From an uncultured Candidatus Saccharibacteria bacterium (GTDB lineage: Bacteria; Patescibacteriota; Minisyncoccia; Phycocordibacterales; UBA5272), in NCBI GenBank assembly GCA_964348515.1, contig CAYGDA010000001.1, positions 11,357-75,356 on the forward strand: a stretch of 64,000 nt of DNA, given 5' to 3'. Positions 2,875-55,563 of the stretch are shown one piece after another. The notes under the pieces were generated by a model. That model ran no database searches, was not told the origin of the DNA, and saw nothing but the letters and a program-made list of their open reading frames with translations. Positions within the stretch are counted from its first letter, which is position 1. The number at the start of each line of letters is the position of its first letter. Both the position numbers and the translations under genes were made by a program.

Positions 2875-2979
2875 GGGCCGGTGAGAATAGGCAGGCGGAA
2901 AAGGCCTTGCAATTTGTTTGCTTTCTGGTAGAGTCTTTACCTATGTGAGGCACACCCCTCATCTGTTTTTCTTTTGTAT

Positions 2980-3093
2980 ATGAAAGTACGATCTTCCGTT
3001 AAAAAAATATGCAGCAAATGCAAGCTTGTAAAGCGCAAGGGTGTGCTTCGTGTTATATGCATTCGGCCCAAGTGTAAACAGCGCCAGGGCTAA
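2980..3093 (+). CDS. rpmJ: 50S ribosomal protein L36
   Basis: Manually translated 37-aa ORF '[37 protein letters not shown]' with the C-x2-C...C-x-x-x-x-H-like L36 zinc-ribbon pattern. Canonical position between infA and rpsM. Below the 60-aa cutoff of the ORF track. Confidence 0.85.
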
Positions 3094-3112
3094 ATAAAAC
3101 CCAAATAAATCA

Positions 3113-3493: not shown

Positions 3494-3497
3494 AATT

Positions 3498-3932: not shown

Positions 3933-3960
3933 TTTTTTATATTAAATTACACTAAACATT

Positions 3961-4581
3961 ATGGATGCCAAATGTAAAATTTGCAGACGTGCCGGAGAGA
4001 AGCTCTTTTTGAAAGGGGACCGTTGTTTTACGCCAAAATGCGCAATGGTTAAGCGCCCTTATGCCCCGGGTAAACTTGATTCCGAAAGGAAGCACAAGTC
4101 ACAGGTTACTGAATATGGCCTTCAGCTTCGTGAGAAGCAGAAGGTTCGTAACATATACGGAGTTTCCGAGAAACAATTCCGTAATTATGTGGATAAGGCC
4201 ATGGGGCACAAAGGTGTGGAGACTACGGGTCTTCTTTTTGAAAGCCTGGAAAGCCGTCTTGATAACGTGGTTTTTAGACTCGGCTTTGTACCGTCACGCG
4301 CTTTAGCGCGCCAAAGCGTTTCCCACGGCCATGTGTTAGTTAACGGAAAGAGAACAACTGTACCTTCATACAAGGTGCGCGTTGGAGATACAATCTCTTT
4401 CCGCGAGGGGAGCAAAGTAAGCAAGTTGTTCGCATTAGCAGCCGAGCGCGTAAAAAATATTACACCTCCGACCTGGCTTTCCCTGGATAAGGAAAAAATG
4501 GTCGCCGAGATTAAAGGGAAGCCCAAAGATACGGAAATTGTTTACAATCTTCAGTCTGTTGTGGAGTTCTATAGCAGATAA
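3961..4581 (+). CDS. rpsD: 30S ribosomal protein S4
   Basis: N-terminal Cys cluster 'CKICRRAGEKLFLKGDRCFTPKC' plus an S4 RNA-binding domain. Follows rpsK. Confidence 0.95.
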   Translation: MDAKCKICRRAGEKLFLKGDRCFTPKCAMVKRPYAPGKLDSERKHKSQVTEYGLQLREKQKVRNIYGVSEKQFRNYVDKAMGHKGVETTGLLFESLESRLDNVVFRLGFVPSRALARQSVSHGHVLVNGKRTTVPSYKVRVGDTISFREGSKVSKLFALAAERVKNITPPTWLSLDKEKMVAEIKGKPKDTEIVYNLQSVVEFYSR

Positions 4582-31999: not shown

Positions 32000-32629
32000 C
32001 TACGAAGGCTTCATAAGACGCACAACCGCTTCCCCTCCGAGAACGACAACCATGTCCTGATTGCGGGCTTCGACAGAAAGGGTGACCCTTCTTTTTTCGG
32101 CATCGAGACCGGTCACTGTAACACGCGTGGTTATCCTGTCCCCGATGAAAACCGGGGCCTTGAAAAGGAAAGACTGGGACTCGTAGAGTGTCCCGGCGCC
32201 GGGTAATTCCTTGGACAAAAGCGCCGAAACGAAAGAACCGACGAGCATCCCATGGGCAATAGGACGCTTGAACCTGGTGCCGGCCGCATGAGCCTCGCTG
32301 AAATGCAGGACATTCCAATCGTCGCTTGCCCGTGCAAAATAAAGCAAAAGCTCCGGCTTTATCTCGGTCAGAGAAGAAGCCGTGTCCCCTATCCTCAGAA
32401 TGTTGAAAGGACGCGCGGGGCGGCTATCCTGGAAATACGGAGGAAAAGTCCTGTAGGCGACTTTCCCGACGAGGTCGGCGTGCAGCTCTATTGCCGCACG
32501 TCCAAATTCCCTTCCAAGCAACTGCGGGAACCCCCAGAAAGCGGCCCAAGCCGAGGCAACCAAATCTTCGGCACCGGGGCTGTCTGTTTGGGGAACTTCT
32601 GGAACTGTGGCACTTCCGGACTGGGTCAT
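32000..32629 (-). CDS. MaoC-like (R)-specific enoyl-CoA hydratase/dehydratase (hotdog fold)
   Basis: 'DDWNVLHFSEAHAAGTRFKRPIAHGML' is the MaoC hydratase motif (D-x-N-x2-H...A-H-G). Very GC-rich coding sequence with a 'GGGAGG' SD. Confidence 0.8.
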   Translation of the reverse strand: MTQSGSATVPEVPQTDSPGAEDLVASAWAAFWGFPQLLGREFGRAAIELHADLVGKVAYRTFPPYFQDSRPARPFNILRIGDTASSLTEIKPELLLYFARASDDWNVLHFSEAHAAGTRFKRPIAHGMLVGSFVSALLSKELPGAGTLYESQSFLFKAPVFIGDRITTRVTVTGLDAEKRRVTLSVEARNQDMVVVLGGEAVVRLMKPS

Positions 32630-42821: not shown

Positions 42822-44210
42822 ATGGCAAACGATCCTCTTTACGCAGCAAGCAGAATACCCCCGCAAAGTCTCGACTCCGAGAAAGCACTTTTGGGTTCCA
42901 TAATGCTACGCCCCGAAGCAATCTTCGACATCATCGACCTAATCCGTCCGGAATCTTTTTACGCCGAAAAGCACAGAATTATTTTTCAAAATATGCTTGA
43001 GCTCGCCAACAAGCGCGAGCCGATTGATTTGCTTTCACTCTCCACCAAACTGCGCGAGAAAAAACAATTGGACATGATAGGCGGCGGCGGATACTTGGCT
43101 GAACTCGTTAACTCAGTTCCTTCAGCCTCAAACTTAAGCTATTACGCCGATTTAGTTTTTAAAAAATCTGTACTGCGAAGCCTAATTGAAGCGGCAAACC
43201 ACATAGGCGAACTCGGATACAGCGAAGAACGCGAACTTGAGCACATTCTTGAAGAAGCACAGAAAAAAATTTATAACGTCACAACTTTAAGCAAGGGGCA
43301 GAAATTCCAGGAGATGAAAGACTTGCTCCACGATGCCTGGGAGCGCATAGACAAGCTTCACAAAGCGGGAGCGGAACTGCGCGGCGTACCGACAGGCTTC
43401 CCGGAATTGGACAACAAACTATCCGGCCTCCAAAAATCGGATCTTATAATTCTGGCGGCGCGCCCTTCAATGGGAAAGACTTCCCTGGCGCTCGACATTG
43501 CCCGCCACGCCGCGACTCAAAATAATATACCTGTCGGCGTGTTCTCTCTTGAAATGAGTTCGCAACAGCTTGTTGACCGCATGGTCTCGGCAGAGTCGCG
43601 CGTTGATGCCTGGCGGCTGCGCACGGGACGGTTGAATCTTGACGACGAATTTACAAAGCTCGGCGAAGGAATAGAGAGATTAAATAAAGCGCCTCTTTTC
43701 ATAGACGACCAGCCGGCAAGTTCGGTACTCCGCATGCGAAGCATTGTCCGCCGCTTTCAGGCGGAACAAGGCAAAGAAATCGGACTCATTGTCGTTGATT
43801 ACCTTCAGCTTATGTCCACTTCCCGTATCTACGACTCAATGGTAAACCAGGTCACCGAAATTTCCCGCTCTCTGAAAGGAATGGCCAAGGAGTTTAATGT
43901 CCCCGTTCTTGCCCTCTCCCAGCTCTCCCGCGCAGTGGAAGCGCGCGGAGGCAAACCCCGCCTCTCCGACCTCCGCGATTCAGGTTCCATTGAACAGGAC
44001 GCCGACGTTGTTATGTTCATACACCGCGAAGACAAATATCAGGACAACCCGGACAAACCGAATGTGGCGGAAATAATGATTGAAAAGCACAGAAACGGTC
44101 CGACCGGAAAAGTTGAACTTTACTTTGACGATAAAAAATCAACATTCCTCTCCATCGAAAAAAGTGAGTTCGGAGATTTTACTCCGCCTTCTTTAGCCCA
44201 GGATTTTTAA
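42822..44210 (+). CDS. dnaB: replicative DNA helicase DnaB
   Basis: N-terminal DnaG-interaction domain ('SEKALLGSIMLRPEAI'), Walker A 'ARPSMGKTS', Walker B 'LIVVDYLQLM'. No intein. Confidence 0.95.
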   Translation: MANDPLYAASRIPPQSLDSEKALLGSIMLRPEAIFDIIDLIRPESFYAEKHRIIFQNMLELANKREPIDLLSLSTKLREKKQLDMIGGGGYLAELVNSVPSASNLSYYADLVFKKSVLRSLIEAANHIGELGYSEERELEHILEEAQKKIYNVTTLSKGQKFQEMKDLLHDAWERIDKLHKAGAELRGVPTGFPELDNKLSGLQKSDLIILAARPSMGKTSLALDIARHAATQNNIPVGVFSLEMSSQQLVDRMVSAESRVDAWRLRTGRLNLDDEFTKLGEGIERLNKAPLFIDDQPASSVLRMRSIVRRFQAEQGKEIGLIVVDYLQLMSTSRIYDSMVNQVTEISRSLKGMAKEFNVPVLALSQLSRAVEARGGKPRLSDLRDSGSIEQDADVVMFIHREDKYQDNPDKPNVAEIMIEKHRNGPTGKVELYFDDKKSTFLSIEKSEFGDFTPPSLAQDF

Positions 44211-44228: not shown

Positions 44229-44834
44229 ATGGACAGTTTCAACAAACTTGTAGAATTTTTTAAGCAGTTTCCCGGCACGGGACCGCGCCAGGCGCGCCGT
44301 TTTGCTTATTTTCTGCTTGCCCAGGACAAAGAAACCCTCAGCCGTTTCTCCAAGGAAATAGAAACCCTCAAAGATTCGGTTTCGCAGTGTCCCGATTGTT
44401 TCCTGTATTTCACCCGTAAAAACGGTCCGCTGTGCGCCGTATGCTCCGCCAGTTCAACCGACCGCAAGACATTAATGATTGTGGAGAAAGACGTTGACCA
44501 GGAAGCGTTACGTAAAAGCGACACATACAAGGGACTTTATTTCATACTGGGCGGGCTGCTCCCTATTCTTGAAAAAGATCCGGCGGAGAAAATCCGAATC
44601 CGCGAACTTGTGGCAAGAATTAAAAAACTGTCTGAAAACGGACTGACCGAAATAATAATAGCCCTCTCCGCCAATCCCGAAGGCGAAAATACGGCGGAGT
44701 ATGTGCGCAGAACTATCGCCCCGCTCGCCCCTAAGGTCAAAATAACGACTCTGGGACGCGGTCTTTCCACGGGCACGGAACTTGAGTACTCCGACTCCGA
44801 TACTCTCTCCCACGCCCTGAAAAACCGCGGATAA
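44229..44834 (+). CDS. recR: recombination protein RecR
   Basis: HhH 'FPGTGPRQARRFAYFLL', C4 zinc finger 'CPDCFLY...CAVC', Toprim domain. Confidence 0.93.
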   Translation: MDSFNKLVEFFKQFPGTGPRQARRFAYFLLAQDKETLSRFSKEIETLKDSVSQCPDCFLYFTRKNGPLCAVCSASSTDRKTLMIVEKDVDQEALRKSDTYKGLYFILGGLLPILEKDPAEKIRIRELVARIKKLSENGLTEIIIALSANPEGENTAEYVRRTIAPLAPKVKITTLGRGLSTGTELEYSDSDTLSHALKNRG

Positions 44835-44845
44835 AACCGCCAATG

Positions 44846-44873
44846 AAAAATCCCGGCTTGTTCCGGGATTTTT
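44846..44873. terminator. bidirectional intrinsic terminator between recR and rplU
   Basis: AAAAATCCCGG-CTTGTT-CCGGGATTTTT. Perfect 11-bp stem flanked by A-run and T-run. Confidence 0.65.
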
Positions 44874-45270
44874 ACTTTATCGAAACTATTTCCACTTTAA
44901 AGAATGGCTGGCGATGGCCGCGTTTCTTGTAATAACGGCTCTTGGCTTTGTATTTAACAACGGTAACTTTGGCCTCCCTTCCTATTTCCTTCAGTTTGGC
45001 CTCTATTTTCGCGCCGGAAATGTACGGAGTGCCGATGGAAGTATCGGTGCCGTTGTCCACGAGGAGTACCTTATCAAACTCGATTTTGTCGCCAACGGTG
45101 AAAGCACCCTTTATTTTCTCAACGGAAACCGTTTCGCCGGGAGAAACCTTATATTGCTTCCCTCCGGTCTCAAAAATAGCGAATTCGTCGGCAATTACCT
45201 TGGCTTTCGGTTTCGCCTTAACTTCTTTAGCTACTTTGGTCTCTTTAGTTGTTTTCTTGGTTGTGGCCAT
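44872..45270 (-). CDS. rplU: 50S ribosomal protein L21 with lysine-rich N-terminal extension
   Basis: 'FAIFETGGKQYKVSPGETVSVEKI' L21 core, preceded by about 30 aa of K/T-rich extension. Start taken at MATTKK. Confidence 0.88.
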   Translation of the reverse strand: MATTKKTTKETKVAKEVKAKPKAKVIADEFAIFETGGKQYKVSPGETVSVEKIKGAFTVGDKIEFDKVLLVDNGTDTSIGTPYISGAKIEAKLKEIGREAKVTVVKYKAKSRYYKKRGHRQPFFKVEIVSIK

Positions 45271-45373
45271 AAACAAAACCTGAGCCTCTTAGGCTGGTTA
45301 TACCCCACATATTAACCTACTTCCCGTAAAAAGCAACGTTTTTAACCCCTTTACGGGAGTGCCGGCAAACCCA

Positions 45374-45402
45374 TTGACTTTTCACTCTAAATATGCTTTA
45401 AT
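45374..45402 (+). promoter_or_regulatory. sigma70-like promoter of GC-rich cassette A (CATTGACTTT -35 box, 17-nt spacer, TTTAAT)
   Basis: TTGACT 45374-45379, TTTAAT 45397-45402. Then the CCGG-ATTT-CCGG hairpin (45426-45437), the GAGGAGAAT SD (45463-45471) and the ATG at 45476. Same scaffold as at 53557. Confidence 0.5.
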
Positions 45403-45475
45403 GAGGGTCGCTGTATAGGGGTAGTCCGGATTTCCGGCCTGCCATTGAAATACTTTTTCCAAGAGGAGAATTCTG

Positions 45476-46078
45476 ATGAACGCAGTCATCTCGGAAGTGC
45501 CCGGCCTCAGCCTGCAGGGTCAAGACCAGTTTCTGGTGAAGTTTTTTTTCACCAACCCGAAGCATATCCCCGACGGTATCCCGTCGGTGGAACGCAAAGC
45601 CGAGGGCATCATCGCCGGAACCCACAAGCTCCAGGCGATGAAAGCCGGTCAATCCGACCTGGCGGAAACCGGCCGCGTGCGCAACGGCATGACGGACACC
45701 GGCACGATGGTGTACCAGAACATCGAAGCCTGCCACGCCGGCTTCATACGCCGCGGCCTCGTCAATTCCGGCTTCGCGCTGGAATCGTTGCACCACTACG
45801 TGCAGCGCAAGGAAGACCGCGCGCCGAAGTTCGTGGTCGTGCTTTCGTTCGTCCGCGGCGCCAACAAGCTGCCTCTTCCCCGCAAGGTGGACGAGGCGCT
45901 GCGCGCCCTGGCGAAATCCACGTGGTTCGGCCATGTCTGGGACAACTCAGCCGTGGGCAATCCCGCCACGATTAACTTCGTGGGCAAACAGGAGCGCCAG
46001 CCCCTGAACGCCCTCGTCGTACGCGGCGGCCGCCTGGAAGTGGTCATCGCAAGCCAGTCGACCATCGACGAAGCCTGA
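45476..46078 (+). CDS. hypothetical protein, GC-rich foreign-looking cargo gene
   Basis: 200-aa ORF in an island of about 60% GC with promoter, SD and terminator. No motif I recognise. Antisense and alternative-frame ORFs here are GC artefacts. Confidence 0.6.
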   Translation: MNAVISEVPGLSLQGQDQFLVKFFFTNPKHIPDGIPSVERKAEGIIAGTHKLQAMKAGQSDLAETGRVRNGMTDTGTMVYQNIEACHAGFIRRGLVNSGFALESLHHYVQRKEDRAPKFVVVLSFVRGANKLPLPRKVDEALRALAKSTWFGHVWDNSAVGNPATINFVGKQERQPLNALVVRGGRLEVVIASQSTIDEA

Positions 46079-46110
46079 ACGCCTTCTCCCCTTCGCGGAC
46101 TCATTTCCGC

Positions 46111-46143
46111 ACCCCCGCCTTTCGACGGGGGTTTTATTTTTGT
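46111..46143. terminator. intrinsic terminator (ACCCCCG-CCTTTCGA-CGGGGGT + TTTTATTTTTGTTT)
   Basis: 7-bp GC stem plus T-rich tail directly after the 45476 gene and 1 nt from the truD (-) stop. Confidence 0.6.
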
Positions 46144-47580
46144 TTAGTTTTCTTCGCCGATTAACTTTTCAAAAATATTATCTCTTTTTGTATGAAGCAC
46201 TTCTTTGAAAAATTCTATGGCGCTTTCCGAACTTCCCTCTCCTAAAAGCGATTTTGTGTCCACAACTATATCAGGAATTTCTTCCGGCGGTTTTCCCGAA
46301 AGCAAAACAAAAAGATGCGCCAGAAAAGTCGTGGCGTATTGTCCTTTGTCCAAAGTGAAAGAAAGAGCCACTCCTTCATTTGTAATTTTTACGCTGTGCA
46401 TTTTTGCGTCAACTTTTGTGTCCACGGTTCTGTGCATAAGGCGGATTGCCGGAAACGGTTTCAGATTGCGGAAAGGAGGCGGATACATATGGTTGTCCTC
46501 AAGAATGTTCCTGTACGGTTCCAAATCTTTTCTGTCAAAACTAAGAAACAGAGGAAGTTCTTTGGGCAAAGGTCCGCCGACTTGGGCGTATATTGAAAGT
46601 TTTTCGTTGAAAAGCCATGAAGAGACAGCGTAGACCCAAAGCATTATCTGCTCGGGAATTTGCTGAAGCGCCCCCACATAATCCCCTTCGTGATTCAAAA
46701 GATGGCGCAGAATCCTGAGTTCGCAGTCAAAAAGCACCGGGAACGGTTCAAAATATTCTATGCACTCCCGCCATGAACCCCATCTGGCCAAAACCTCATT
46801 GCGCAAAAATTGAACATAAGGAAGTTCGTTGGGAGAACTCTCGGTCAGATATTGCTTTACCGCTTTTCCGTAATCGCCCTTGATAATGCTGTACGCCCAG
46901 CGGAAGTTTGAGAGACGCGGCGTGCCGAAACGCTGAAGATAATAAAAATTATAAACCTCGCCGTGGGTCACCCGTTCAACGGCCTGCATAAAAATATCTT
47001 TCTTCTCAGTTTTCTCAAGAGGCGCGGGCAAGCGCATAAAAATGGTGAAGCGGTTTCCTGTCAGCTTTCCGCGGTCCATAACGCCAACACCCGCGGTAAC
47101 GTCTTTCAGAAAAAAGTGCGCGGAGGACGCGGAGCGTATTTTCTCCGGGGATACTCCCTTTATTGAAATGCGCTGGGCGGTAATGGCGTCTTTATCTTTT
47201 ATCCCGGCGTAACGGATATTTTCTTTCGGGCAGTCCAGCAATTCCGCCAAATCCCGTATGGCTTCTTCAGTCTGAATACCGCATTTAACGAGAGTGGCAA
47301 AATAACTCTGCGCTTCGGGCAAATCAGCTTCCGAAGCCAGATTTCTGCGTTCAATCGTGCAAACCTCGCCTTTTTCGTCCACTTCCTCAACAATGAAATC
47401 CGACGGAGTGAATTTCAAAAATCCCTGAGGCAAAACATCTTTGTACGGAATGCGTATACCAAGCGGCTCCAAGAGTTCGGCGTCTTCAACAAAAGTGTGG
47501 AGTTTAAACAAATCCGGATGGGTTGAATAAACTTTTGCCAAATTCCGGATTTCAATTTCCTTGTCCTCTACTCGGGTCAT
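46144..47580 (-). CDS. truD: tRNA pseudouridine synthase TruD/Pus7 family
   Basis: 'FLKFTPSDFIVEE' N-terminus and catalytic-Asp motif 'AGIKDKDA'. Confidence 0.82.
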   Translation of the reverse strand: MTRVEDKEIEIRNLAKVYSTHPDLFKLHTFVEDAELLEPLGIRIPYKDVLPQGFLKFTPSDFIVEEVDEKGEVCTIERRNLASEADLPEAQSYFATLVKCGIQTEEAIRDLAELLDCPKENIRYAGIKDKDAITAQRISIKGVSPEKIRSASSAHFFLKDVTAGVGVMDRGKLTGNRFTIFMRLPAPLEKTEKKDIFMQAVERVTHGEVYNFYYLQRFGTPRLSNFRWAYSIIKGDYGKAVKQYLTESSPNELPYVQFLRNEVLARWGSWRECIEYFEPFPVLFDCELRILRHLLNHEGDYVGALQQIPEQIMLWVYAVSSWLFNEKLSIYAQVGGPLPKELPLFLSFDRKDLEPYRNILEDNHMYPPPFRNLKPFPAIRLMHRTVDTKVDAKMHSVKITNEGVALSFTLDKGQYATTFLAHLFVLLSGKPPEEIPDIVVDTKSLLGEGSSESAIEFFKEVLHTKRDNIFEKLIGEEN

Positions 47581-47587
47581 TTATTTT

Positions 47588-48658
47588 TTAATCGTCGCTT
47601 GCGGGTTTATCAAGCAAATTAGGTTCGTAGCCGAGACCGTCGGTTCCCGTAATTTTTATAATATCTTTATCAACCTTCTTCAGTTCCTTGGAAGCCAAAT
47701 TGTACTGATTGACCGTAGTGCCTAAGGCATTACCGACTTTGCTGAAATAGCTTTCATACGCATTCAAATGCTTCATCAATTCCCCTACACGCTGGCCTAT
47801 TTCCACCGCCTTCTCTTCAATTTTGAAAGCTTTGAAACCATACAAAACGGACTGCAGGTATGCCGCGAAAGTCGTAGGGGAAACAATAACAACTTTCTTT
47901 TCGTTGTAAGCGTAGTCCAGAAGGCTTCTGGTATTTACCTTAACAGCCCCGACTTCATTTATAAGCAGATCATAGTAAATGCCTTCTGCCGGAATAAACA
48001 TAAAAGCAAACGGCAGAGTCCCCTCTTCGGTGCGTATATATTTTGCCGTCTCGTCTATGCGCTTTTTCAAATCGTTCCTGAAATCTTTTTCCAAATCCGC
48101 TTTTCTGTCTTCGTCTTTCTCATTAATTATGCGGTTGTAATTGTCCAGAGAATATTTTGCGTCAACGGGTATAATCCCCTCTTTGGTGACAATCACCGCG
48201 TCCACCGCGTCGCCGTTTGTAAACCTGTGCTGAATTTTGTAAGCTCCCGGCGGAAGAATATTTGAAAGAATAAGTTCAAGCGATGCCTCGCCCAAGTTCC
48301 CGCGCTGTTTCTGGTGCTTGAGCACTTTCTCAAGATTCTGCAATTGTTCGGTTATTGAAAAAACCTGCTTGTTGGACTCGTTAACTTCGGTCAGTTTCTC
48401 CGTTATATCCTGAATGAGTTTCTGCGACTCGGAGAACTGTCTATGTACCTGCGTTTGCATATCACGGTTTGATTCCGCGAATTTTGAGTCCAGACGGGTA
48501 AGATTGTGGTCAAAACGGTTGGCGATTGATTCCAGCTGGTGCTGAATCATAAGTATCGTGTCGGTCTCTTTCCCGCCACCCTTTCCCCGCAATACAAAAA
48601 ATATAACGGCGACCAATACCGCGCCTATTAAAACGCCAACAATTATTCCCGTATACAT
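47588..48658 (-). CDS. rmuC: DNA recombination protein RmuC
   Basis: N-terminal TM, long coiled coil, '...KQRGNLGEASLELILSNIL...' and C-terminal '...MFIPAEGIYYDLL...' RmuC conserved region. Confidence 0.85.
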   Translation of the reverse strand: MYTGIIVGVLIGAVLVAVIFFVLRGKGGGKETDTILMIQHQLESIANRFDHNLTRLDSKFAESNRDMQTQVHRQFSESQKLIQDITEKLTEVNESNKQVFSITEQLQNLEKVLKHQKQRGNLGEASLELILSNILPPGAYKIQHRFTNGDAVDAVIVTKEGIIPVDAKYSLDNYNRIINEKDEDRKADLEKDFRNDLKKRIDETAKYIRTEEGTLPFAFMFIPAEGIYYDLLINEVGAVKVNTRSLLDYAYNEKKVVIVSPTTFAAYLQSVLYGFKAFKIEEKAVEIGQRVGELMKHLNAYESYFSKVGNALGTTVNQYNLASKELKKVDKDIIKITGTDGLGYEPNLLDKPASDD

Positions 48659-48691
48659 ATTAGAGATTATAACACAGCACTAAACGCCCAT

Positions 48692-49486
48692 TTACCCGAA
48701 GAGAGTCTGGATTTTTGGAGGTTCGCCTTTGCCTGTTTTTTTCTCAACCGCCGACACGGCCTCCCTGTAATTGCAATAATCACAATCTTCACTTTGCTCC
48801 GGAATCTTATCCGAGTCTAAAGTTTCCTTAATTTTGAAAAGTACCGGCTCTACCCAATCGGAATTGCCTGTGTAAGGAATTATTTTTATATCAAACTCTA
48901 GCTTGGCATCAAACGCTTCCCTGTCGGAATCCGCGTTGGCATAAACAAAATACCCCGTGTCGGAAACATCAAAGCCATTACGGCGGAAAAGCCACTGATA
49001 AACTTCCATCTGCCTCTTGTAACCGTCCTGCCACTCGGCGTCCAGATTTACTTCCGTCTTTTTGCTCGTCGCTTTGTAGTCGGCAATGATAATTTTGCCG
49101 TCAGCCCCCTTCCACACATCATCAACCCCACCGCGCACCAGAAACCCGGTCGGTTCGTGCAGAAATTGTATTCCATGCCGAAGCGAGTCGCGCCAAGCAT
49201 CCAGTTCTTCATGCGAAAACGGCACAGCGTCAATCCCATATTCTTTCATCAGCGGATGCGCCTCGCCTTTTGCCCTGTGCACATCAAACTCGCGCTTCAA
49301 AAGCTCATCAACGGCGCTGTTTAAGTTAAAGGGAAATCCCGGCGGGCGCGCCACCCCAAGCTTATTGTCCGTATAAAAACACCGCGGACACTCCATAAAA
49401 AGATCTATCTTTGAACGGCTCAGGCGGAAATTTTTTCCTCCGTAATTCCAGTCGGGCTTCCTGTTTGGCTTGTAATACTGCGACAT
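48692..49486 (-). CDS. PD-(D/E)XK nuclease family protein, Cas4-like with 4-Cys cluster (paralogue of 36716..37915)
   Basis: 'CPRCFY' N-terminal CxxC, 'GGVDDVWK...IIIADYKATSKK' (motifs II/III), 'YKRQMEVYQW' (QxxxY), 'CDYCNYR' C-terminal CxxC. Start uncertain (MSQYY at about 49486, or upstream ATGs up to 49546). Confidence 0.7.
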   Translation of the reverse strand: MSQYYKPNRKPDWNYGGKNFRLSRSKIDLFMECPRCFYTDNKLGVARPPGFPFNLNSAVDELLKREFDVHRAKGEAHPLMKEYGIDAVPFSHEELDAWRDSLRHGIQFLHEPTGFLVRGGVDDVWKGADGKIIIADYKATSKKTEVNLDAEWQDGYKRQMEVYQWLFRRNGFDVSDTGYFVYANADSDREAFDAKLEFDIKIIPYTGNSDWVEPVLFKIKETLDSDKIPEQSEDCDYCNYREAVSAVEKKTGKGEPPKIQTLFG

Positions 49487-49534
49487 AATTCTCTGCATCC
49501 TACCACGAAACGGCCGTGTTATAATAACCCGCAT

Positions 49535-49990
49535 ATGACAATACAAGAGAAAATAAAAGAAGATTTAAAGGAAGCGATGAAAGCCAAGGATGAAATCAGA
49601 ATGCTTACCCTGCGGGGACTTATTTCCGGATTCACGAACGAACTTGTGGCTACAAAACGCATGCCAAACGAGTCTATTCCCGACGAGGACGCCTTAAATG
49701 TAATACGCCGTGCCACAAAACAGCGCAAAGACGCCATAGAACAGTTCACCGCCGGCGGGCGTCCCGAACTTGCCGACAATGAACGTAAAGAGTTAGCGAT
49801 TCTTGAAGTATATCTGCCGAAAATGATGAGCGAGGACGAGGTCATGGCTTTTGCCGAAAAGAAAGTGGCCGAACTCGGCGGGGATAAATCTAAAGCGGGA
49901 CTTATAGTAGGCGCTTTAATGAAAGACTTAAAAGGCAAAGCTGACGGAGCGGTTGTAAAGGCTGTGGTTGATAAGCTGTTGACAAACTGA
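49535..49990 (+). CDS. yqeY: GatB/YqeY domain-containing protein
   Basis: 'IKEDLKEAMKAKDEIRMLTLRGLISGF...' and '...AGLIVGALMKDLKGKADGAVVKAVV' are the YqeY family signature. Confidence 0.85.
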   Translation: MTIQEKIKEDLKEAMKAKDEIRMLTLRGLISGFTNELVATKRMPNESIPDEDALNVIRRATKQRKDAIEQFTAGGRPELADNERKELAILEVYLPKMMSEDEVMAFAEKKVAELGGDKSKAGLIVGALMKDLKGKADGAVVKAVVDKLLTN

Positions 49991-50028
49991 CAAACGTTGT
50001 AGAATTATAAACAGAACAGTACCAAGAC

Positions 50029-50610
50029 ATGAATCAGCCCCCAAACCCAATCGAGGAGCCAAATATGGACGAGAGACCGGTTCCTCCCTTGGAAGCTTAC
50101 CAGGAGGAATCAGAAAGGTTAGAAAGCCAAAACCCGGCGAAGAGACCCCCGGAAAGTTTCGGCGTACCCACTCTGCCAATGCCTGATACAACGGGTATGC
50201 CGGAATCTATGAAGGAGATAATCCGCAAGCGCCACGCCCCGCCGGTTGATGTCGGGAGTCTTCCAATGCCCGAACCACTTCCCGATGAAGCTTGGGCAGA
50301 CTCTGCGGGAAATCTTTTTCCCCCGGAGAACGACGACCCCCACCAGGGCGAACCCGAAGGATTAGAAGGTACGCCTGCGGGAATGGAGCACACCGTGGCT
50401 ATAGCGGAAGAAGCCGCCCATCCTACCGAGAGTGTCCGCCAAGCGCTTCCCAATCGTGAAGGCCGGAAAGCCGAGAGAGCCCACGAAGCGGCCAAAGCCG
50501 AAGACCCGACAAAAGGCACCCGGCTGTGGTGGAAAGAGCAGGAGGAACACGAGGACGAAACCGCCGAATTGAGAAAGAGAGCGGAAGGAAGCGGAAAGTC
50601 CGGATCATAA
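50029..50610 (+). CDS. hypothetical acidic, Pro/Glu-rich intrinsically disordered protein
   Basis: 193-aa ORF with low-complexity P/E/A composition in a moderately GC-enriched segment. No TM and no motif. Confidence 0.4.
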   Translation: MNQPPNPIEEPNMDERPVPPLEAYQEESERLESQNPAKRPPESFGVPTLPMPDTTGMPESMKEIIRKRHAPPVDVGSLPMPEPLPDEAWADSAGNLFPPENDDPHQGEPEGLEGTPAGMEHTVAIAEEAAHPTESVRQALPNREGRKAERAHEAAKAEDPTKGTRLWWKEQEEHEDETAELRKRAEGSGKSGS

Positions 50611-50890
50611 CGCGAGGGATTCCCCCGAGCGTTTTTTAATTACAGGAAGGACAACTTATTAAAAAAGCCGCTTTCAAAAGTGGCTTCGCCGTCAGTTATT
50701 TCAGGTTCTGTTTCTTTGCGTCAGGATTGCTTGAGCTTGTTACCTTTTTTCCACCGGTGAAAATCGGTTCAATAAGGGACCACGCCCAATCATCAAACCT
50801 GTCCAGAAGCTTTTTCAGTATTTGCATGAATAACCCTCAAGGCCGGAAAATCAGTCAAAAAGAATTTTCTGCCGTCAGTCTATCCTATTT

Positions 50891-51151
50891 TTAAGATTGA
50901 ACAAATCTAGCCCCCTCATTTTTCAATAATTCCATTTTCTGTTTCATCCCTCTGTTGTAATCCCCTATTTTTCCGTCAGAACGCACAACCCTGTGGCACG
51001 GAATTTTCGGGTCGTAGTTTTTATTTAAAATATTCCCGACCGCCCTGTAAGCATTAGGCTTCCCGGCTTTCTTAGCAACTTCCTTATAAGTTAAAGTCTT
51101 ACCCCTGGGGATTTTACGGACGACCGCGTAAACTTTTTGGGAGAAGGTCAT
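50891..51151 (-). CDS. stand-alone methylated-DNA-protein-cysteine methyltransferase (Ogt/MGMT C-terminal domain) protein
   Basis: 86 aa. HTH 'TYKEVAKKAGKPNAYRAVGNIL' and active-site 'PCHRVV' motif of O6-alkylguanine alkyltransferases. Confidence 0.75.
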   Translation of the reverse strand: MTFSQKVYAVVRKIPRGKTLTYKEVAKKAGKPNAYRAVGNILNKNYDPKIPCHRVVRSDGKIGDYNRGMKQKMELLKNEGARFVQS

Positions 51152-51330
51152 TTATTACGGAAATCAGCCCAGAGGGAAATTATGCCTAGAGCCAGGAAAA
51201 GAGCGGATTCAATCCAGTTCCCTTTTTGGAATGCTTCTATAAGGGCTATTCCGAAAAAGATTACGAATACTGTGAGGTTTGGAAAAGATATTTTTTGCAT
51301 GTATGTCTTTACATATACTCTAACATTCAG

Positions 51331-51359
51331 TTCAATTTTTGAAAAAATGGTGTTAGAAT
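51331..51359 (+). promoter_or_regulatory. putative tRNA promoter (TTCAAT-17-TGtTAGAAT, extended -10)
   Basis: TTCAAT 51331-51336, TG at 51351-51352, TAGAAT 51354-51359. Predicted TSS about 6 nt before the mature tRNA 5' end. Confidence 0.35.
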
Positions 51360-51371
51360 CGGCCTGTTTAA

Positions 51372-51443
51372 GGCCCTATCGTCTAACGGTTAGGACGAGA
51401 GCTTCTCAAGCTCTAAATCCGGGTTCGATTCCCGGTAGGGTCA
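51372..51443 (+). tRNA. tRNA-Glu (anticodon CUC)
   Basis: 72-nt cloverleaf folded by hand. Acceptor GGCCCTA/TAGGGTC, D-arm GTCT/GGAC, anticodon stem AGAGC/GCTCT with loop TTCTCAA, T-arm CCGGG-TTCGATT-CCCGG, discriminator A. CCA not encoded. Confidence 0.85.
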
Positions 51444-51489
51444 CAAGTTGCTAATCTGGCACGTTTCCACGACTAGACAACAAAAATTA

Positions 51490-52020
51490 ATGAAGCATCG
51501 AGAACTAACAGATCATATAAAAGGTTCCTTTTTGAAAAGACAATACCTAGAAGCTTTCCTTGTTCAAAGTGCATATATAGAAAGTCTTCTGAAACTATCA
51601 GCAGATTACAGCTTCTTTTTGGCTACATCGAAAGTTAGGAAACCTTCTCCTCCCAAAATTCTTGAAGTAGTAAGTAGAAACTTAGAACGAATGGCTCTTA
51701 ATGATTTAATCAATTTTCTGTACAAAGCTGAGGTAATTACAAAAAAACAGAAAGATCTATTAGACGAATACAGAATAAGGAGAAATAAAATGCTTCATGA
51801 TCTTATTACTGAAATTCAGAAAGATAAATTTGAGGTTGAGTTGAGGGAAATTTGTGAAAAAGGTACGTTGATAATTGAGGATCAAGCATTTATTGAAATG
51901 GCGGATTTGATTGATTTTTTGGAGAAGCCACAATCTACTGAAAACGTAGACCAGACTTCTCAAGCTAAACTACCCGCTGTCCCCAATATTGAAAATAATA
52001 GAAATAAAGAAACTACCTAA
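51490..52020 (+). CDS. hypothetical alpha-helical protein with canonical HEPN motif (R-N-x3-H)
   Basis: 176 aa from the ATG at 51490 (the ORF track starts at a TTG at 51448). 'YRIRRNKMLHDL' contains R-N-K-M-L-H, the R[NHQD]xxxH HEPN RNase signature. AT-rich (about 32% GC) and directly 3' of the tRNA. Confidence 0.5.
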   Translation: MKHRELTDHIKGSFLKRQYLEAFLVQSAYIESLLKLSADYSFFLATSKVRKPSPPKILEVVSRNLERMALNDLINFLYKAEVITKKQKDLLDEYRIRRNKMLHDLITEIQKDKFEVELREICEKGTLIIEDQAFIEMADLIDFLEKPQSTENVDQTSQAKLPAVPNIENNRNKETT

Positions 52021-52059
52021 GAATCTCTTAAGGTCTGAATGTAATCTTCGCTCAATTTT

Positions 52060-52278
52060 CTACTCATCCTTCATATCCCACCTCCGCTTATTGATTTCCT
52101 CCATTTGTTTGTAGGAATGGACGTATTTCTTCCGGTGCTTACTCTCCCTAATCTCTTCCAACTGCTCCTTTGTTAGTAAGGGTGTTTTCAGTTTGCCAAT
52201 CTGTTTAAGAAGACTCTTGGCGAAAGTTCGAGGTCTGTCCCGATACGGTTCACAAATGGAAATCTCATAATTAACAAA
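52060..52278 (-). pseudogene. degenerate C-terminal fragment of a tyrosine recombinase/integrase (no start codon)
   Basis: Stop-to-stop frame translates to '...RDRPRTFAKSLLKQIGKLKTPLLTKEQLEEIRESKHRKKYVHSYKQ...'. This resembles integrase box II (R-H-T-F-A-x-x-L-L ... G-H ... R-Y-x-H) with the Tyr about 35 aa after the Arg. No ATG near the 5' end. Confidence 0.3.
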
Positions 52279-52330
52279 TTACAAAAACTTGACTTACAAA
52301 TGTTTTATTATAGTCTGAGGGAAAAGAAGC

Positions 52331-52933
52331 ATGACTAGTGTCTCCACAACCACACAATTATTATTGCTCCAACAGAAAATTGATTCTTTTGATTGGATAA
52401 TCACTGAAACCACCTTAACCCTGACTTTTTTAATTGCGTTATTTGTGGCCATTCAATTTGTTTACTCACGCAAACTTCAAGTAAAGGACATCGAAAAACT
52501 TAAATTAAATCTTACTAATTTCATTACTAACAAGGTAGATGATAAAGCGCTCGATTTACAGTCGCTAATTAGACAAACTACAGAGGAGTTGAGATCAAAC
52601 ATAAAGGAAGACCAAATCACCCTAACGGCCGAAATTTCAAGAAGTTATGCCCTTCATAACGAACAACTAGGGGCCTTCGAAAATGCCTTTGAATGGTGGT
52701 TAAAGGCCGCAAGATTTTACAAAGAATCAAAAGAAGAAGACCTATTCCGGATATCGTTTGATTCCGCGCTTGATTCTATTACTAAGCTCGATATTACCAA
52801 TAAAGGCGCCTTAAAACTTTTACTCAAACACATGCCTGTTATAGAAGGGTACTTAAATTTTTTGAGACCTTTCAATAAGATTGAAATAGAGATTTTAGAA
52901 AAAAAACTAAAAGAAAAATTAGAGACTCTCTAA
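52331..52933 (+). CDS. hypothetical membrane-anchored helical protein (island gene)
   Basis: 200 aa. One TM helix 'WIITETTLTLTFLIALFVAIQFVY', then helical/coiled-coil. AT-rich. Confidence 0.5.
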   Translation: MTSVSTTTQLLLLQQKIDSFDWIITETTLTLTFLIALFVAIQFVYSRKLQVKDIEKLKLNLTNFITNKVDDKALDLQSLIRQTTEELRSNIKEDQITLTAEISRSYALHNEQLGAFENAFEWWLKAARFYKESKEEDLFRISFDSALDSITKLDITNKGALKLLLKHMPVIEGYLNFLRPFNKIEIEILEKKLKEKLETL

Positions 52934-53517
52934 CTTACTTGGTTAAAAAAACGCCCCCGGAATGTAAGCGCCGCAATGACGGAGGAACCTATAATTGTGT
53001 AAACAGGAAAAAGCAGATTGTAAGCGGTAAAATCTGTAGTCGCCACAACTTCCGAAGTGACCCCCACAACGTATAAAACCCAAAGCGTGGAAGGTTCTGA
53101 TGTCGGGTCTTGGTAAGTTTTAACGATTGTCGGAACCGTCACGGATAAATCGGCAATCATACTGAATATAATTGCCGTTAACGGTTCTCTGGTAATGGCC
53201 CAAAGAGTAATAGCCAGTATGCCAAGCACAATGCATATGCCGTCGGCACGAGTCCACACCGCACGCCCCAAACGCAGTGCCGTGAAAGCTATGATGGTCG
53301 TACTAAGTGTTGAAATAAGAGGCACCGCGAGCGACCAGTCTATTCCTTTAGAAGCTTGCGCAACTGTGGCTATGGCAAACAAAAGCGCCCAACCAAACCA
53401 CGACACAGCGCTTGGCCTGGTGGTGCTGGAAATAATGCTTTTTATATAGGGAACGATAAGCGCAAGCAATAATATGCTTGCGCCGGTTCCAAGCCACACG
53501 TGCCAGTCAAAATTCAT
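52930..53517 (-). CDS. hypothetical polytopic membrane protein (about 6 TM)
   Basis: 195-aa ORF of host-like composition. Six hydrophobic segments. No motif. Confidence 0.5.
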   Translation of the reverse strand: MNFDWHVWLGTGASILLLALIVPYIKSIISSTTRPSAVSWFGWALLFAIATVAQASKGIDWSLAVPLISTLSTTIIAFTALRLGRAVWTRADGICIVLGILAITLWAITREPLTAIIFSMIADLSVTVPTIVKTYQDPTSEPSTLWVLYVVGVTSEVVATTDFTAYNLLFPVYTIIGSSVIAALTFRGRFFNQVS

Positions 53518-53556
53518 ATATGTTTTAAGGATATCATTTCAGTACCAATATTATCA

Positions 53557-53585
53557 TTGACTTTCCTACTTTTTTGTAGTATAAT
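53557..53585 (+). promoter_or_regulatory. consensus sigma70 promoter of GC-rich cassette B (CATTGACTTT ... 17 nt ... TATAAT)
   Basis: TTGACT 53557-53562, 17-nt spacer, perfect TATAAT 53580-53585. Then the GGGG-ATTT-CCCC hairpin (53612-53623), the GAGGAGAAT SD (53649-53657) and the GTG at 53661. Confidence 0.6.
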
Positions 53586-53660
53586 ACGTGTCAGAAATTT
53601 AGAGAAGATTCGGGGATTTCCCCTTAACTAAACCCGCAGTACATTAACGAGGAGAATCAC

Positions 53661-54461
53661 GTGATTGGATCCCCCATCAGCCTGGCGGAAATGCGCGAAA
53701 TTGGCTATCTGGCAGGCGGAATCATGAAGACCTACTTCACCCACTTCGGGATGGAAAGGGTCGTCAAAACCGACACCACCCCGCTTACCAAAGCGGACAC
53801 CGAAATCAACGACATGGTCATCGAGCACGTTCGGCGCATAGCGCCGGAAATCGACATCATCGGCGAAGAGCGCAGCGCCCGCCTGAACAGCCCCTGGCAA
53901 ATCGTCTGCGACCCCGTGGACGGCACTTTCCCCTACTCTTGGGGAATGCCTGTGGCAACGTTCATGCTGGGAGTGCTCTACAAGCACCAGCCTATGGCGG
54001 GCGTCATCTACGACCCGTTCACCGACAGGATGTATTCGGCGGAGGTCGGCAAAGGCGCCTGGATGAACGACAAGAAGCTCAGGGTTTCCAAGGTCAGCAA
54101 AAAGGAAGACCGTCCCATCGTCGGCTACGTCTCCTGGCCGGGCTGCCCGTTTAACGTCATCGGGGCATGCGCGTTTCTGGAGTCGCGGGGAGTTACGCTC
54201 GTGAACATCTGTTCCATCGGCTACCTCGAAGTGGCGGTGGCAAACGGAGAATTCGCGGGTACGATTTTCCCCGGCACGGCATACCACGACACGGCTCCGG
54301 GACACGTCATCGTGGAGGAAGCCGGCGGACTGGTCACTGACATTCTGGGAAACCCCCTCAAGTACGAGGACGGAAAAATCCAGGGCCACATCATGTCCAA
54401 CGGCAGGATTCACGAGCTCCTGGTGAGCGGTATGAGGATTGCGCAGTCGCACACACGCTAG
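53661..54461 (+). CDS. inositol monophosphatase family protein (IMPase/SuhB/CysQ-like)
   Basis: 'DPVDGT' metal-binding motif, 'IDIIGEE' and 'HDTAPGHVIVEEAGG' (WDxAAG-like) motifs. GTG start. About 60% GC. Confidence 0.82.
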   Translation: MIGSPISLAEMREIGYLAGGIMKTYFTHFGMERVVKTDTTPLTKADTEINDMVIEHVRRIAPEIDIIGEERSARLNSPWQIVCDPVDGTFPYSWGMPVATFMLGVLYKHQPMAGVIYDPFTDRMYSAEVGKGAWMNDKKLRVSKVSKKEDRPIVGYVSWPGCPFNVIGACAFLESRGVTLVNICSIGYLEVAVANGEFAGTIFPGTAYHDTAPGHVIVEEAGGLVTDILGNPLKYEDGKIQGHIMSNGRIHELLVSGMRIAQSHTR

Positions 54462-54472
54462 AGGCTTGCGCG

Positions 54473-54513
54473 GGCGCGGACGGTTTCAACAAACCGGACG
54501 CGCCTTTTATTTT
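54473..54513 (+). terminator. strong intrinsic terminator (two-tier hairpin GGCGCG-GA-CGGTTT-CAAC-AAACCG-GA-CGCGCC + TTTTATTTT)
   Basis: Perfect 12-bp interrupted stem followed by a T-rich tail, 12 nt after the IMPase stop. Lies inside the 5' extension of ORF 54439, so that extension is not coding. Confidence 0.7.
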
Positions 54514-54528
54514 GCCTTTAAATTGGCT

Positions 54529-55563
54529 ATGCTTTCCCTAACAAATAAACACGAAATGGCTTACTCGCAAAAACCTCTTATAGATTTGATGAAAAAAGGG
54601 CAAGTCCCGGGAGAAAGCGGAATCCCCCGCCACATTGAAACCGTGATTTCAAATGTTTTTCTTTTTGACAAAAACGCCTACAAAATCTACAAAAACGATA
54701 ATGATTTTTTCAACAAAGAGTTCCGCGACATTTCAGGCAAAGAGGAGCGCTTCACCTTCACCCGCGGAGACTTCGCATGGAACAACAAACTCAGTCCGTC
54801 CATCTATTTAAAGCTTATGGGGATACGCGTAGCCGCCGGAGAAATAGAATTCCTTGAACCTGTGGACGAAGCCGATGACCTGGTCATTTTTATGAACCGT
54901 GTTGATTCAAAAGATTTCCTGGTTGAAAAACTTATGCGCGGCGAAATCACAGAAAAAGACGCCTTCTCCATAGGCAGACAGCTTGGAGAAACTTTGGGTC
55001 ACTTAAAGGCGCCGAAGGTGGAAGGGCAAAATTATTACGAACTTTTTGAGAGCAGGATTAAAGACATGCGGGAATGGATAAAGATGGTGAACGAATATAT
55101 AAGCGAGGAAGAATCCGGCGCGTACTGTGATTTTCTGGAAAATTTCCGCAACAAAAACAAGGGTCTGCTTGAAGGCACGATGAGCGATGAACTCGCCCAC
55201 AGCGGAGATTTGCACAGCCATAACGCGGTTTTTACGGGCGGAAAGCTTCACCTGGTGGACACCTTCCCTCCCAAAGAAGAATGGCTCATACAGCACCGTA
55301 TGATATCAGTGTACAGAATGGGTTCGGACATCTGGGCTTTAAGCGGAGACAAAAACCTGTTTGAGTCTTATATAAAAGGATACGAAGAAGGGAGCGGGAT
55401 AAAAGTGGACAGAAATCTTGATGTTCCGTTTGTTATATACGCTTCTTCTATAATGGTTTCTTATTTGTATATGCTCCAGAGAACCGACCCTAAAAACAAA
55501 GAATCGGCTCTGCGCTTCCACAAATTCATACGCGAATATTTCGCGGAGGTAAAAAATAAATAA
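54529..55563 (+). CDS. putative phosphotransferase of the protein-kinase-like (APH/choline-kinase) fold
   Basis: 'SGDLHSHNAVF' (HGDxxxxN catalytic loop-like) and 'LHLVDTF' (DFG/DxE-like). Start placed after the terminator (MLSLTNK at 54529 or MAYSQ at 54556). Confidence 0.5.
   Translation: MLSLTNKHEMAYSQKPLIDLMKKGQVPGESGIPRHIETVISNVFLFDKNAYKIYKNDNDFFNKEFRDISGKEERFTFTRGDFAWNNKLSPSIYLKLMGIRVAAGEIEFLEPVDEADDLVIFMNRVDSKDFLVEKLMRGEITEKDAFSIGRQLGETLGHLKAPKVEGQNYYELFESRIKDMREWIKMVNEYISEEESGAYCDFLENFRNKNKGLLEGTMSDELAHSGDLHSHNAVFTGGKLHLVDTFPPKEEWLIQHRMISVYRMGSDIWALSGDKNLFESYIKGYEEGSGIKVDRNLDVPFVIYASSIMVSYLYMLQRTDPKNKESALRFHKFIREYFAEVKNK

Follow-up and report, generated by a model that had tools for sequence, protein, structure and literature searches.

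Gene A is a short, strikingly GC-rich gene that lies beside truD in the window analysed here, the whole 64,000-nt stretch taken from contig CAYGDA010000001.1 of an uncultured Candidatus Saccharibacteria bacterium. The reading favoured below, to which we give about an even chance, is that gene A is a vertically inherited and undescribed gene of the Patescibacteria whose GC content is held up by a gene-specific force, and that it is not an inserted mobile element. This reading is preferred because of conserved synteny, co-divergence with truD, synonymous saturation without amelioration, and the contrast between two relatives (L042 and L015) that reside in hosts of very different GC content. The lineage of gene A is probably that of the Paceibacteria. 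As proposed, the gene would form a self-contained unit, made up of a near-consensus sigma-70 promoter, a leader of 65-110 nt with a small hairpin, the coding sequence (CDS), and an intrinsic terminator, and its high GC content would belong to the gene A lineage itself and not to a recent donor.

The association with truD is the most stable property of the gene. Gene A is convergent with truD in all 13 lineages with recoverable context, namely the window (equivalent to L001-L004), L005/L006, L007/L008, L009, L013, L014, L015, and L041 through L046; a locus search with a 12-sequence alignment returned only four metagenome loci. The stop codons of the two genes lie 49-125 nt apart (about 560 nt in L043), and every other neighbour of gene A, including the one upstream, differs between lineages. 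The arrangement persists down to family members only ~25% identical in amino acid sequence to the protein A of the window. Moreover, the identity matrices of gene A and truD agree on which locus is nearest in 8 of 12 cases (permutation p=5e-5), and in pairs other than the window and L006, gene A is as diverged as truD or more so. Patchy presence and discordance with flanking genes, both expected of an acquired island, are thus not what is seen (13/13 beside truD, 8/12 in agreement). Homologues in syntenic positions with similar GC content had been named beforehand as evidence against the mobile cassette envisaged by the original prediction; they exist as far as synteny is concerned, and for gene A the mobile-cassette reading fails.

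The compositional anomaly itself is sharp. The window as a whole is 45.5% GC, the 500-nt bin at 45501-46000 reaches 62.6%, and the adjoining bins stand at 45.8% and 47.4%. A log-odds maximal-segment scan places the GC-richest segment of the 64 kb at 45568-46131 (65.1% GC), in keeping with the earlier claim of a GC-rich segment between rplU and truD, where the open reading frame (ORF) is 62.7% GC. The second-ranked segment in the same scan, 53671-54504 (59.7% GC), falls in a further unit, cassette B, which encodes a protein of the inositol-monophosphatase (IMPase) family. By codon position the GC content of gene A is 0.64/0.41/0.83 (GC1/GC2/GC3), whereas GC3 in the backbone genes runs from 0.27 to 0.60 with a median of 0.47; among about 65 ORFs none of them comes near gene A or the IMPase gene. 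Atypical base composition and atypical codon usage, the marks by which acquired islands are commonly recognised, are accordingly both present in gene A.

These marks are decoupled from the composition of the host. Across 12 loci, gene A stays within 0.58-0.66 GC and a GC3 of 0.70-0.87, whereas truD spans 0.36-0.68 GC and a GC3 of 0.30-0.90 and tracks its host. Where truD GC3 is only 0.30-0.51 (the window, L006, L042, L044, and L045), gene A exceeds it by 0.27-0.40, and an ameliorated copy is found in none of these five, the hosts whose truD is of low or mid GC. The window and L006 come from sister hosts of 46% GC each, and between them the four-fold degenerate sites of gene A are 0.41 identical against an expectation of 0.36. 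Such sites are therefore essentially saturated, yet they are still GC-rich: four-fold GC is 90% and 74% in gene A of the window and L006, respectively, and 55% and 49% in truD. A second comparison pairs L042, from a 41% GC host, with L015, from a 64% GC host. The two are mutual nearest neighbours in truD, and in gene A, L015 is nearest to L042 and L006 is narrowly nearest to L015; four-fold GC is 0.60/0.92 in truD (L042/L015) and 0.79/0.84 in gene A. Saturation without amelioration, the L042/L015 contrast, and the absence of any ameliorated copy among the five hosts all argue against a simple recent import. Since GC content has been held through a full turnover of synonymous sites in differing hosts, some gene-specific force would have to maintain it.

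The shift extends to every synonymous codon class of gene A, all of which have moved towards GC, with Lys/Glu/Gln moving less than the others. At pyrimidine-ending two-fold sites the fraction of C is 0.81 in gene A of the window, 0.47 in the backbone, and 0.83 in GC-rich Paceibacterota genes. The corresponding G+C fractions at four-fold sites are 0.90, 0.53, and 0.90, and the fractions of G-ending Lys/Glu/Gln codons are 0.56, 0.31, and 0.83.

Protein A belongs to a widespread family of the Patescibacteria that has no annotation and no solved structural relative. A first search through 5.8 billion proteins yielded only 12 relatives, of which one was labelled Candidatus Paceibacterota, and a profile search of 1.84 billion cluster representatives returned 308 clusters at E<=1e-3, with 189 at 1e-10 or better. 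No match to Pfam was found for any of 98 family members at E<=0.01, nor for protein A in NCBIfam, PHROG, or PADLOC, nor for the 98-sequence profile among PDB sequences at E<=1. AlphaFold2 modelled protein A with a mean predicted local distance difference test score (pLDDT) of 81 from 12 sequences and of 93.6 from 98 sequences, the latter with a predicted template modelling score (pTM) of 0.89. The modelled fold is alpha/beta, with eight strands and five helices, and a comparison of the better model with PDB structures gave no structural neighbour. The original prediction had described a real ORF without a placeable motif and had put its product forward as a new family, and both statements stand.

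Conservation within the family is concentrated at a few near-invariant positions (K22, P32, G66, R69, D74-T75-G76, L145, N157, and N167) and in the motifs VKFxF, GRxRxGxVDTG, RRGL, W..N, and T.N. The protein is basic, and the closest 12 sequences share a conserved acidic tail at the C-terminus. Between the window and L006, where the proteins are 66% identical, codon positions 1, 2, and 3 are 75%, 77%, and 48% identical, a pattern that indicates purifying selection on the forward frame and hence a coding frame. Because of the rigid linkage to truD, the basic character of the protein, and its Arg-rich invariant motifs, it can be proposed, quite tentatively, that protein A acts with or on the TruD/tRNA pathway, perhaps as a partner that binds RNA or nucleotides.

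Cassette B provides a counterpart to gene A whose history is of another kind. Its IMPase gene product matches PF00459 over its full length (E 3.4e-41, 142 bits against a cut-off of 27), includes the DPxDGT motif, and falls below every NCBIfam equivalog cut-off. Members of its clade are 58-73% identical to the window protein and carry metagenome-assembled genome labels of Paceibacterota, Kaiserbacteria, and Moraniibacteriota, plus others, which are probably unreliable. In 13/13 lineages the clade-specific IMPase gene adjoins a member of a second family, hyp374 (335-374 aa), and the loci share nothing else; hyp374 and the IMPase probably form a functional pair. The hyp374 protein has a conserved N-terminus, M-x-Y-S-Q-K-P, and no match in Pfam, NCBIfam, PHROG, or PADLOC; its true start is probably the ATG at 54556, which has a -10-like box 4 nt upstream. 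As with gene A, composition is constrained: the IMPase gene is 0.51-0.61 GC across backbones of 0.37-0.60, whereas hyp374 tracks the backbone (GC3 0.23-0.75). More distant IMPases (33-41% identity) match the composition of their hosts.

The IMPase and hyp374 genes do not share a history, with nearest-neighbour agreement in 0/13 loci and a Mantel p of 0.8. The clearest case involves L010 (4920-5786) and L017 (about 7902-8770), which differ at just 17 positions over 867 nt, from just upstream of the -35 box to the stop codon. Beyond this stretch the terminators are ~84% identical, the upstream DNA cannot be aligned, and the hyp374 proteins are 34% identical. Because the unit is 98% identical while the neighbouring genes share 34% identity, the comparison indicates that a promoter-to-stop unit of cassette B was recently exchanged laterally between divergent genomes at a fixed locus. 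The one artefact able to produce such a pattern would be a double-junction assembly chimera, an unlikely source, as both flanks of L017 differ from those of L010. The idea of a family of laterally mobile cassettes thus survives in part for cassette B, as an exchanged unit, and is lost for gene A on the strength of its synteny, its co-divergence with truD, and the lack of mobility marks described below. Upstream of the IMPase gene, L010 (positions 1-4565) and L011 also carry conflict-system-type genes (CTD10, MC6, and DUF2326), which no other locus has.

The behaviour of cassette B brings up the strongest rival explanation for gene A, recurrent replacement. Here promoter-to-terminator units of gene A would be swapped at the truD locus by GC-richer Paceibacterota alleles, through natural transformation and homologous or homology-facilitated recombination, and each would reside too briefly in a low-GC host to ameliorate. 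Several observations favour such a process or weigh against vertical inheritance. Exchange is seen directly in cassette B, both in the L010/L017 pair and in the disagreement between IMPase and hyp374 histories. Between the window and L006, gene A proteins are 66% identical and TruD proteins 51-52%, which fits a later transfer or replacement, and gene A alone aligns there at the DNA level. In its four-fold composition, the window's gene A cannot be told apart from genes of GC-rich Paceibacterota, as expected for an import. The Mantel correlation between gene A and truD is weak (r=0.29, p=0.06), and the nearest neighbours of the two genes differ for L041, L045, L046, and, in a near-tie, L015. 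Genomic context covers 12-13 of the more than 300 family clusters, and host relationships are judged from one neighbouring gene. Ribosomal-protein genes show no comparable codon shift, which disfavours ordinary translational selection as the force that a vertical history calls for. Exchange within the Patescibacteria is also reported to dominate their horizontal gene transfer (HGT): most HGT detected in groundwater members lies within the phylum (PMC12455944), in agreement with the behaviour of cassette B, and that study contains nothing on gene A or the IMPase.

Against recurrent replacement stand the co-divergence of gene A with truD (8/12, p=5e-5) and the fact that no allele closer than 68% to gene A of the window occurs among 5.8 billion proteins. 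The closest pair, whose members reside in sister low-GC hosts, is synonymously saturated, and all five hosts with low- or mid-GC truD hold a GC-rich gene A without amelioration. Replacement would, moreover, require recombination between flanks whose encoded proteins share only ~50% identity. On balance we regard recurrent replacement as a minority possibility to be taken seriously, and favour vertical inheritance.

If gene A is indeed vertically inherited, the candidate forces behind its composition are selection on GC-rich codons, selection on mRNA stability or structure, and localised GC-biased gene conversion. Selection on the mRNA would fit the other features suggestive of high expression, which are a consensus promoter, a 5' hairpin, a strong Shine-Dalgarno sequence (SD), and a strong terminator. 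Ordinary translational selection is unlikely to be the sole cause, given that ribosomal-protein genes are unshifted and that G- and C-ending four-fold codons are both enriched.

The features of the two units and their neighbours are collected in Table 1. The wider neighbourhood of gene A includes dnaB, recR, rplU, truD, rmuC, and a PD-(D/E)XK nuclease gene; truD is assigned by its PF01142 match (E 1.7e-57, 195.6 bits against a gathering cut-off of 27), and at each of the other loci TruD was likewise called next to gene A. The arrangement around gene A is identical in four same-species assemblies, whose contigs are at least 99.8% identical.

Table 1. Positions of the genes and predicted expression signals at gene A and cassette B, numbered from the first letter of the window
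Feature	Position	Strand	Details
rplU, upstream neighbour of gene A	44872..45276	-	GC3 0.52; position not conserved in other lineages
Gene A promoter (predicted)	45374..45402	+	-35 TTGACT 45374-45379, 17-nt spacer, TG 45394-45395, -10 TTTAAT 45397-45402
Gene A leader hairpin	45426..45437	+	CCGG-ATTT-CCGG, within a leader of ~66 nt (roughly 45409-45475)
Gene A Shine-Dalgarno	45463..45471	+	GAGGAGAAT, 4 nt before ATG
Gene A	45476..46078	+	Encodes a basic 200-aa protein, alpha/beta, family uncharacterised; 62.7% GC, GC3 0.83
Gene A intrinsic terminator	46111..46142	+	ACCCCCGCC-TTTCGAC-GGGGGT then TTTATTTTTG
truD (tRNA pseudouridine-13 synthase)	46144..47580	-	Convergent with gene A; 45.7% GC, GC3 0.48
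Cassette B promoter (predicted)	53557..53585	+	TTGACT-17-TATAAT, 11/12 matches
Cassette B leader	53612..53657	+	Hairpin GGGG-ATTT-CCCC 53612-53623, 25 nt, SD GAGGAGAAT 53649-53657
Cassette B gene, inositol-monophosphatase family	53661..54461	+	GTG start; 58.9% GC, GC3 0.79
Cassette B terminator	54473..54513	+	14-bp interrupted stem GGCGCGGACGGTTT / AAACCGGACGCGCC, loop CAAC, tail TTTTATTTT
hyp374-family gene	54556..55563	+	335 aa; called 374 aa from TTG 54439; backbone composition

At the sequence level both cassettes carry a sigma-70 promoter, an SD, and an intrinsic terminator. A promoter scan of both strands (at least 5/6 matches at -35, a spacer of 16-18 nt, and a good -10) found ten sites in the window, and the two that are intergenic and correctly placed are those of cassettes A and B. 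A TTGACA-18-AATTAT site at 49979-50008 lies near ORF 50029-50610 (see below). In a scan of 18 kb, the promoter of cassette B was listed first among promoter-like sites and the terminator of gene A first among terminator-like ones. The terminator of cassette B was read from the sequence, the automated scan having missed it because its stem has two internal mismatches. The motifs CATTGACTTT and GAGGAGAAT each occur twice in the 64-kb window, exclusively at the two cassettes. Hairpins CCGGATTTCCGG and GGGGATTTCCCC each end exactly 25 nt before the SD, predicted leader lengths are about 66-70 nt for both genes, and a GC hairpin followed by TTTTATTTT closes both at the 3' end. In these particulars (the 17-nt spacer, the 25-nt distance to an identical SD, and the hairpin with its T-type tail) the original prediction was accurate.

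It was less accurate in treating the flanks as near-copies of one scaffold. The upstream regions of the two cassettes align with 69/144 columns identical, the identities being concentrated in four blocks (the -35, the -10, an 8-mer, and the SD), and the downstream flanks share only the T-tail. What looked like a standardised scaffold is the consensus promoter of the phylum, ATTGAC-17-TGnTAtAAT, combined with a strong SD and an intrinsic terminator, and not shared DNA. The argument that pairing is conserved while the stem changes rests on two non-homologous sequences, and most orthologous leaders lack the hairpin. Compared with shuffled sequences, neither leader stands out in its folding (z -1.5 for gene A, z -0.8 for cassette B), and among eight leaders folded, only that of L015 does. 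Orthologues of gene A do keep the general plan. The seven whose flanks were compared each have a terminator, a leader of 65-110 nt, and their own (A)TTGAC(A/T)-16 or 17-nt-(TGn)TAtAAT promoter, and about half of the seven show a clear SD-like motif; most orthologues have an extended -10 (TG). A hairpin with a T-run lies between the gene A and truD stop codons in all orthologues.

The remaining likeness between the leaders suggests another explanation, that the 8-mer GGATTTCC, as a mini-hairpin 25 nt before the SD, marks a shared regulon, served by one regulator or acting to sequester the SD or stabilise the message. This would be compatible with vertical inheritance of gene A, and we consider it unlikely. 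In both leaders the 8-mer does stand at an equal distance from an identical 9-mer SD, a coincidence that by our own estimate would arise by chance with a probability of about 1e-3 to 6e-3. G(A/T)TTCC-type motifs recur at -36 to -48, with a related motif, AGTTCCTTACCA, occupying this place in the leaders of the IMPase genes of L010, L017, L018, and L020 and ATTTCC at -48 in the gene A leader of the distant orthologue L045. In all, such motifs appear in 6/12 gene A leaders and 6/13 IMPase leaders, against a background of 0.2 per 110 nt; the motif is short, however, and the leaders are partly homologous, so that these counts are not independent. Half of the orthologous leaders also lack the motif, the window shows no enrichment of GGATTTCC (6 copies against 4.3 expected), and the folds are no more stable than shuffles. 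Rfam, run on the whole window at the gathering score, reports a single tRNA and no known cis-regulatory RNA in the leaders.

Two further matches to the leaders occur elsewhere in the window, and both are probably due to chance. At 49316-49340, in the PD-(D/E)XK nuclease gene, 25 nt repeat the cassette B leader motif (GGGATTTCCCCTTAACTAAAC) in inverted form with 84% complementarity, and at 50460-50473 a Pro/Glu-rich ORF contains 14 nt complementary to the cassette A hairpin. That ORF, 50029-50610, encodes an acidic, low-complexity protein with no family match (GC3 only 0.56), and its amino acid composition accounts for its third place among the GC-richest segments.

The expression signals of gene A and the IMPase gene set them apart from most of their neighbours. 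SD 4-mers precede 7/63 backbone genes, compared with 11.3% at random positions, whereas 7/63 genes have a TAWAAT-type box no more than 25 nt from the start codon, against 2.5% at random (p=9e-4). In many genes a TAtAAT box stands 5-12 nt before the start (for example 47588-48658, 49535-49990, 42822-44210, and 61584-63338), and typical start regions read ...gttataatctctaatATG and ...gttataataacccgcatATG. Related loci of low and high GC content have SD-like motifs before 0/12, 5/13, 3/13, and 1/16 genes. Judged from these start regions, the genomes of the window and of related Paceibacterota loci appear to be largely leaderless and SD-independent. The concern that the promoter, hairpin, and SD combination might simply be the local consensus upstream of ordinary genes is thus answered, the backbone being SD-less or leaderless. 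Because almost all other genes lack an SD and many lack a leader, gene A and the IMPase gene appear to form a small, distinct class of leadered genes, SD-led in the window, that are probably strongly expressed. In the literature, no paper turned up that deals, for Patescibacteria, with GC-rich outliers, with the use of SDs, or with leaderless genes.

Some other genes share one or another of these properties. The MaoC-like dehydratase gene at 32000-32629 is the fourth GC-richest segment of the window (56% GC, GC3 0.60) and is among the few backbone genes with GGAGG ahead of the start codon. In low-GC Paceibacterota loci, an OMP-decarboxylase gene in L044 (2997-3770) has a GC3 of 0.59 against a median of 0.33, and a 131-codon ORF just upstream of the IMPase gene in L021 (6953-7348) has 0.65 against 0.30. 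These last two, moderate outliers may be further members of a GC-rich class, or they may be spurious.

That gene A is a recent, one-off acquisition, a mobile single-gene cassette on a portable promoter-hairpin-SD-terminator scaffold, is very improbable. It would account for a compositional outlier with sharp edges and its own promoter and terminator, and for the 10-mer, 8-mer, and 9-mer motifs that gene A and cassette B have in common at collinear positions. It is contradicted by the conserved synteny beside truD in 13/13 lineages, and the upstream flanks, as noted, are not copies of one another. No attC-like inverted repeat was found in 45100-46400 or in 44800-55000, where only short, chance-level repeats occur; no att-like repeats mark the flanks, and there is no integrase, recombinase, or insertion sequence (IS) element among the neighbours of gene A. 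Neither gene A nor the IMPase gene was found in phages, plasmids, or viral contigs, and the four same-species assemblies all have the same arrangement. A candidate flanking direct repeat, CCCATTGACTTTTCA / CCGATTAACTTTTCA (at 45370 and 46157, 13/15 matches), does not occur in L006 and, as one of 14 similar repeats, does not exceed chance; what resembles its counterpart on the right of cassette B is simply the promoter of the next gene.

The sole tRNA gene of the window, tRNA-Glu(CUC) at 51372-51444, lies 5 kb from gene A and is tied to a different, low-GC stretch. This stretch, at 33-35% GC, runs from the tRNA to 52933, just upstream of cassette B, and contains ORFs 51448-52020 (a weak DUF4145 match and a weak PADLOC match to CARF_HEPN) and 52331-52933, with no firm family. 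The region 51372-52933 has the look of a low-GC island sited beside its tRNA gene.

The notion that the high GC content follows from an antisense gene or a structured RNA overlapping gene A can be almost wholly discounted: though long antisense ORFs do exist at 45398-45934 (178 aa) and at 53628-54452 (274 aa, opposite the IMPase gene), such ORFs are an expected by-product of avoiding TTA, CTA, and TCA codons, the in-register antisense frame is broken in many orthologues (81/199 codons in L006 and 120-140 of about 265 in L012, L016, and L021), Rfam finds nothing, and the sense frame has a pLDDT of 93.6 and a family of 308 clusters.

A bolder generalisation would join gene A and the IMPase gene in a small class of compositionally autonomous Patescibacteria genes, stand-alone, SD-led, and strongly promoted within otherwise leaderless genomes. 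They would be kept at ~60% GC whatever the host (36-68%) by selection on mRNA or codons or by localised GC-biased conversion, a force that would be new to bacteria at the resolution of single genes. At least one of the units would be traded between lineages at a fixed locus, from promoter to stop codon, and protein A would be an obligate TruD partner with a new fold. We find this doubtful, if somewhat less so than recurrent replacement.

Whatever the force involved, the comparison of the two units has practical consequences. Atypical GC content together with a private promoter is usually read as recent import, and here the same signature is stable in gene A, which appears to be vertical, and exchanged in the IMPase gene 8 kb away; composition-based detection of HGT in Patescibacteria would therefore misclassify such genes. 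The GC homeostasis of gene A across hosts 30 GC points apart also amounts to a natural experiment on selection, biased conversion, and mutation, in which truD or hyp374 serves as an internal control in every genome for the question of what determines GC content. The truD-linked protein A family is a concrete target for new tRNA-modification or RNA biology in a phylum whose genes are mostly unknown, and rare SD-led genes in a leaderless genome would represent a distinct translational regime, relevant to gene finders and expression models.

Gene A can be set beside several known systems. Codon-usage outliers, GC enrichment associated with recombination, and locus-specific allelic replacement all resemble it, and it departs from each of them in magnitude, in its restriction to a single transcription unit, and in persistence. 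Under the model of Lawrence and Ochman, horizontally acquired atypical genes reportedly undergo amelioration towards their host. Gene A resembles the acquired islands of that model in being a sharp GC and GC3 outlier with its own regulatory signals and non-host codon usage, but it differs in being syntenic, in co-diverging with truD, in lacking mobility marks, and in showing no amelioration. Integron cassettes offer another likeness, since both A and B are single-gene units with defined ends and B is exchanged at one fixed chromosomal position. Unlike A and B, which have their own promoters and terminators and no attC or integrase, integron cassettes are promoterless, end in attC, and have intI nearby.

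For cassette B a parallel may lie in switching loci. At capsule, O-antigen, and other such loci, locus-specific alleles are replaced by homologous recombination among related lineages. The B unit, 98% identical despite highly diverged flanks and always beside the same partner gene, fits this description. In contrast to those loci, B consists of just one gene, for an enzyme of housekeeping type, and runs from its own promoter to its stop codon; homology is recognisable on one side only, and no such exchange is seen for gene A. The enzyme itself is a full-length relative of the PF00459 proteins (SuhB, CysQ, HisN, and FBPase/IMPase), DPxDGT included, and differs from them as a clade-specific lineage below the NCBIfam equivalog cut-offs that is always paired with hyp374.

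With regard to composition, Lassalle et al. in 2015 and Hildebrand et al. in 2010 are said to have described GC-biased gene conversion or selection on GC3 in bacteria. Gene A shares with those cases a synonymous GC enrichment against mutational bias that extends to all codon classes. The effects reported there are genome-wide and modest, whereas here GC3 is shifted by 0.3-0.5 in one or two genes and the shift stops at the boundaries of the transcription unit. With regard to translation, one precedent is rpsU in Flavobacteriia, an exceptional SD-led gene in a genome that otherwise avoids the SD. The window likewise has a strong SD on very few genes, with the others at the chance rate, but those that carry it encode an orphan protein and an IMPase instead of a ribosomal protein.

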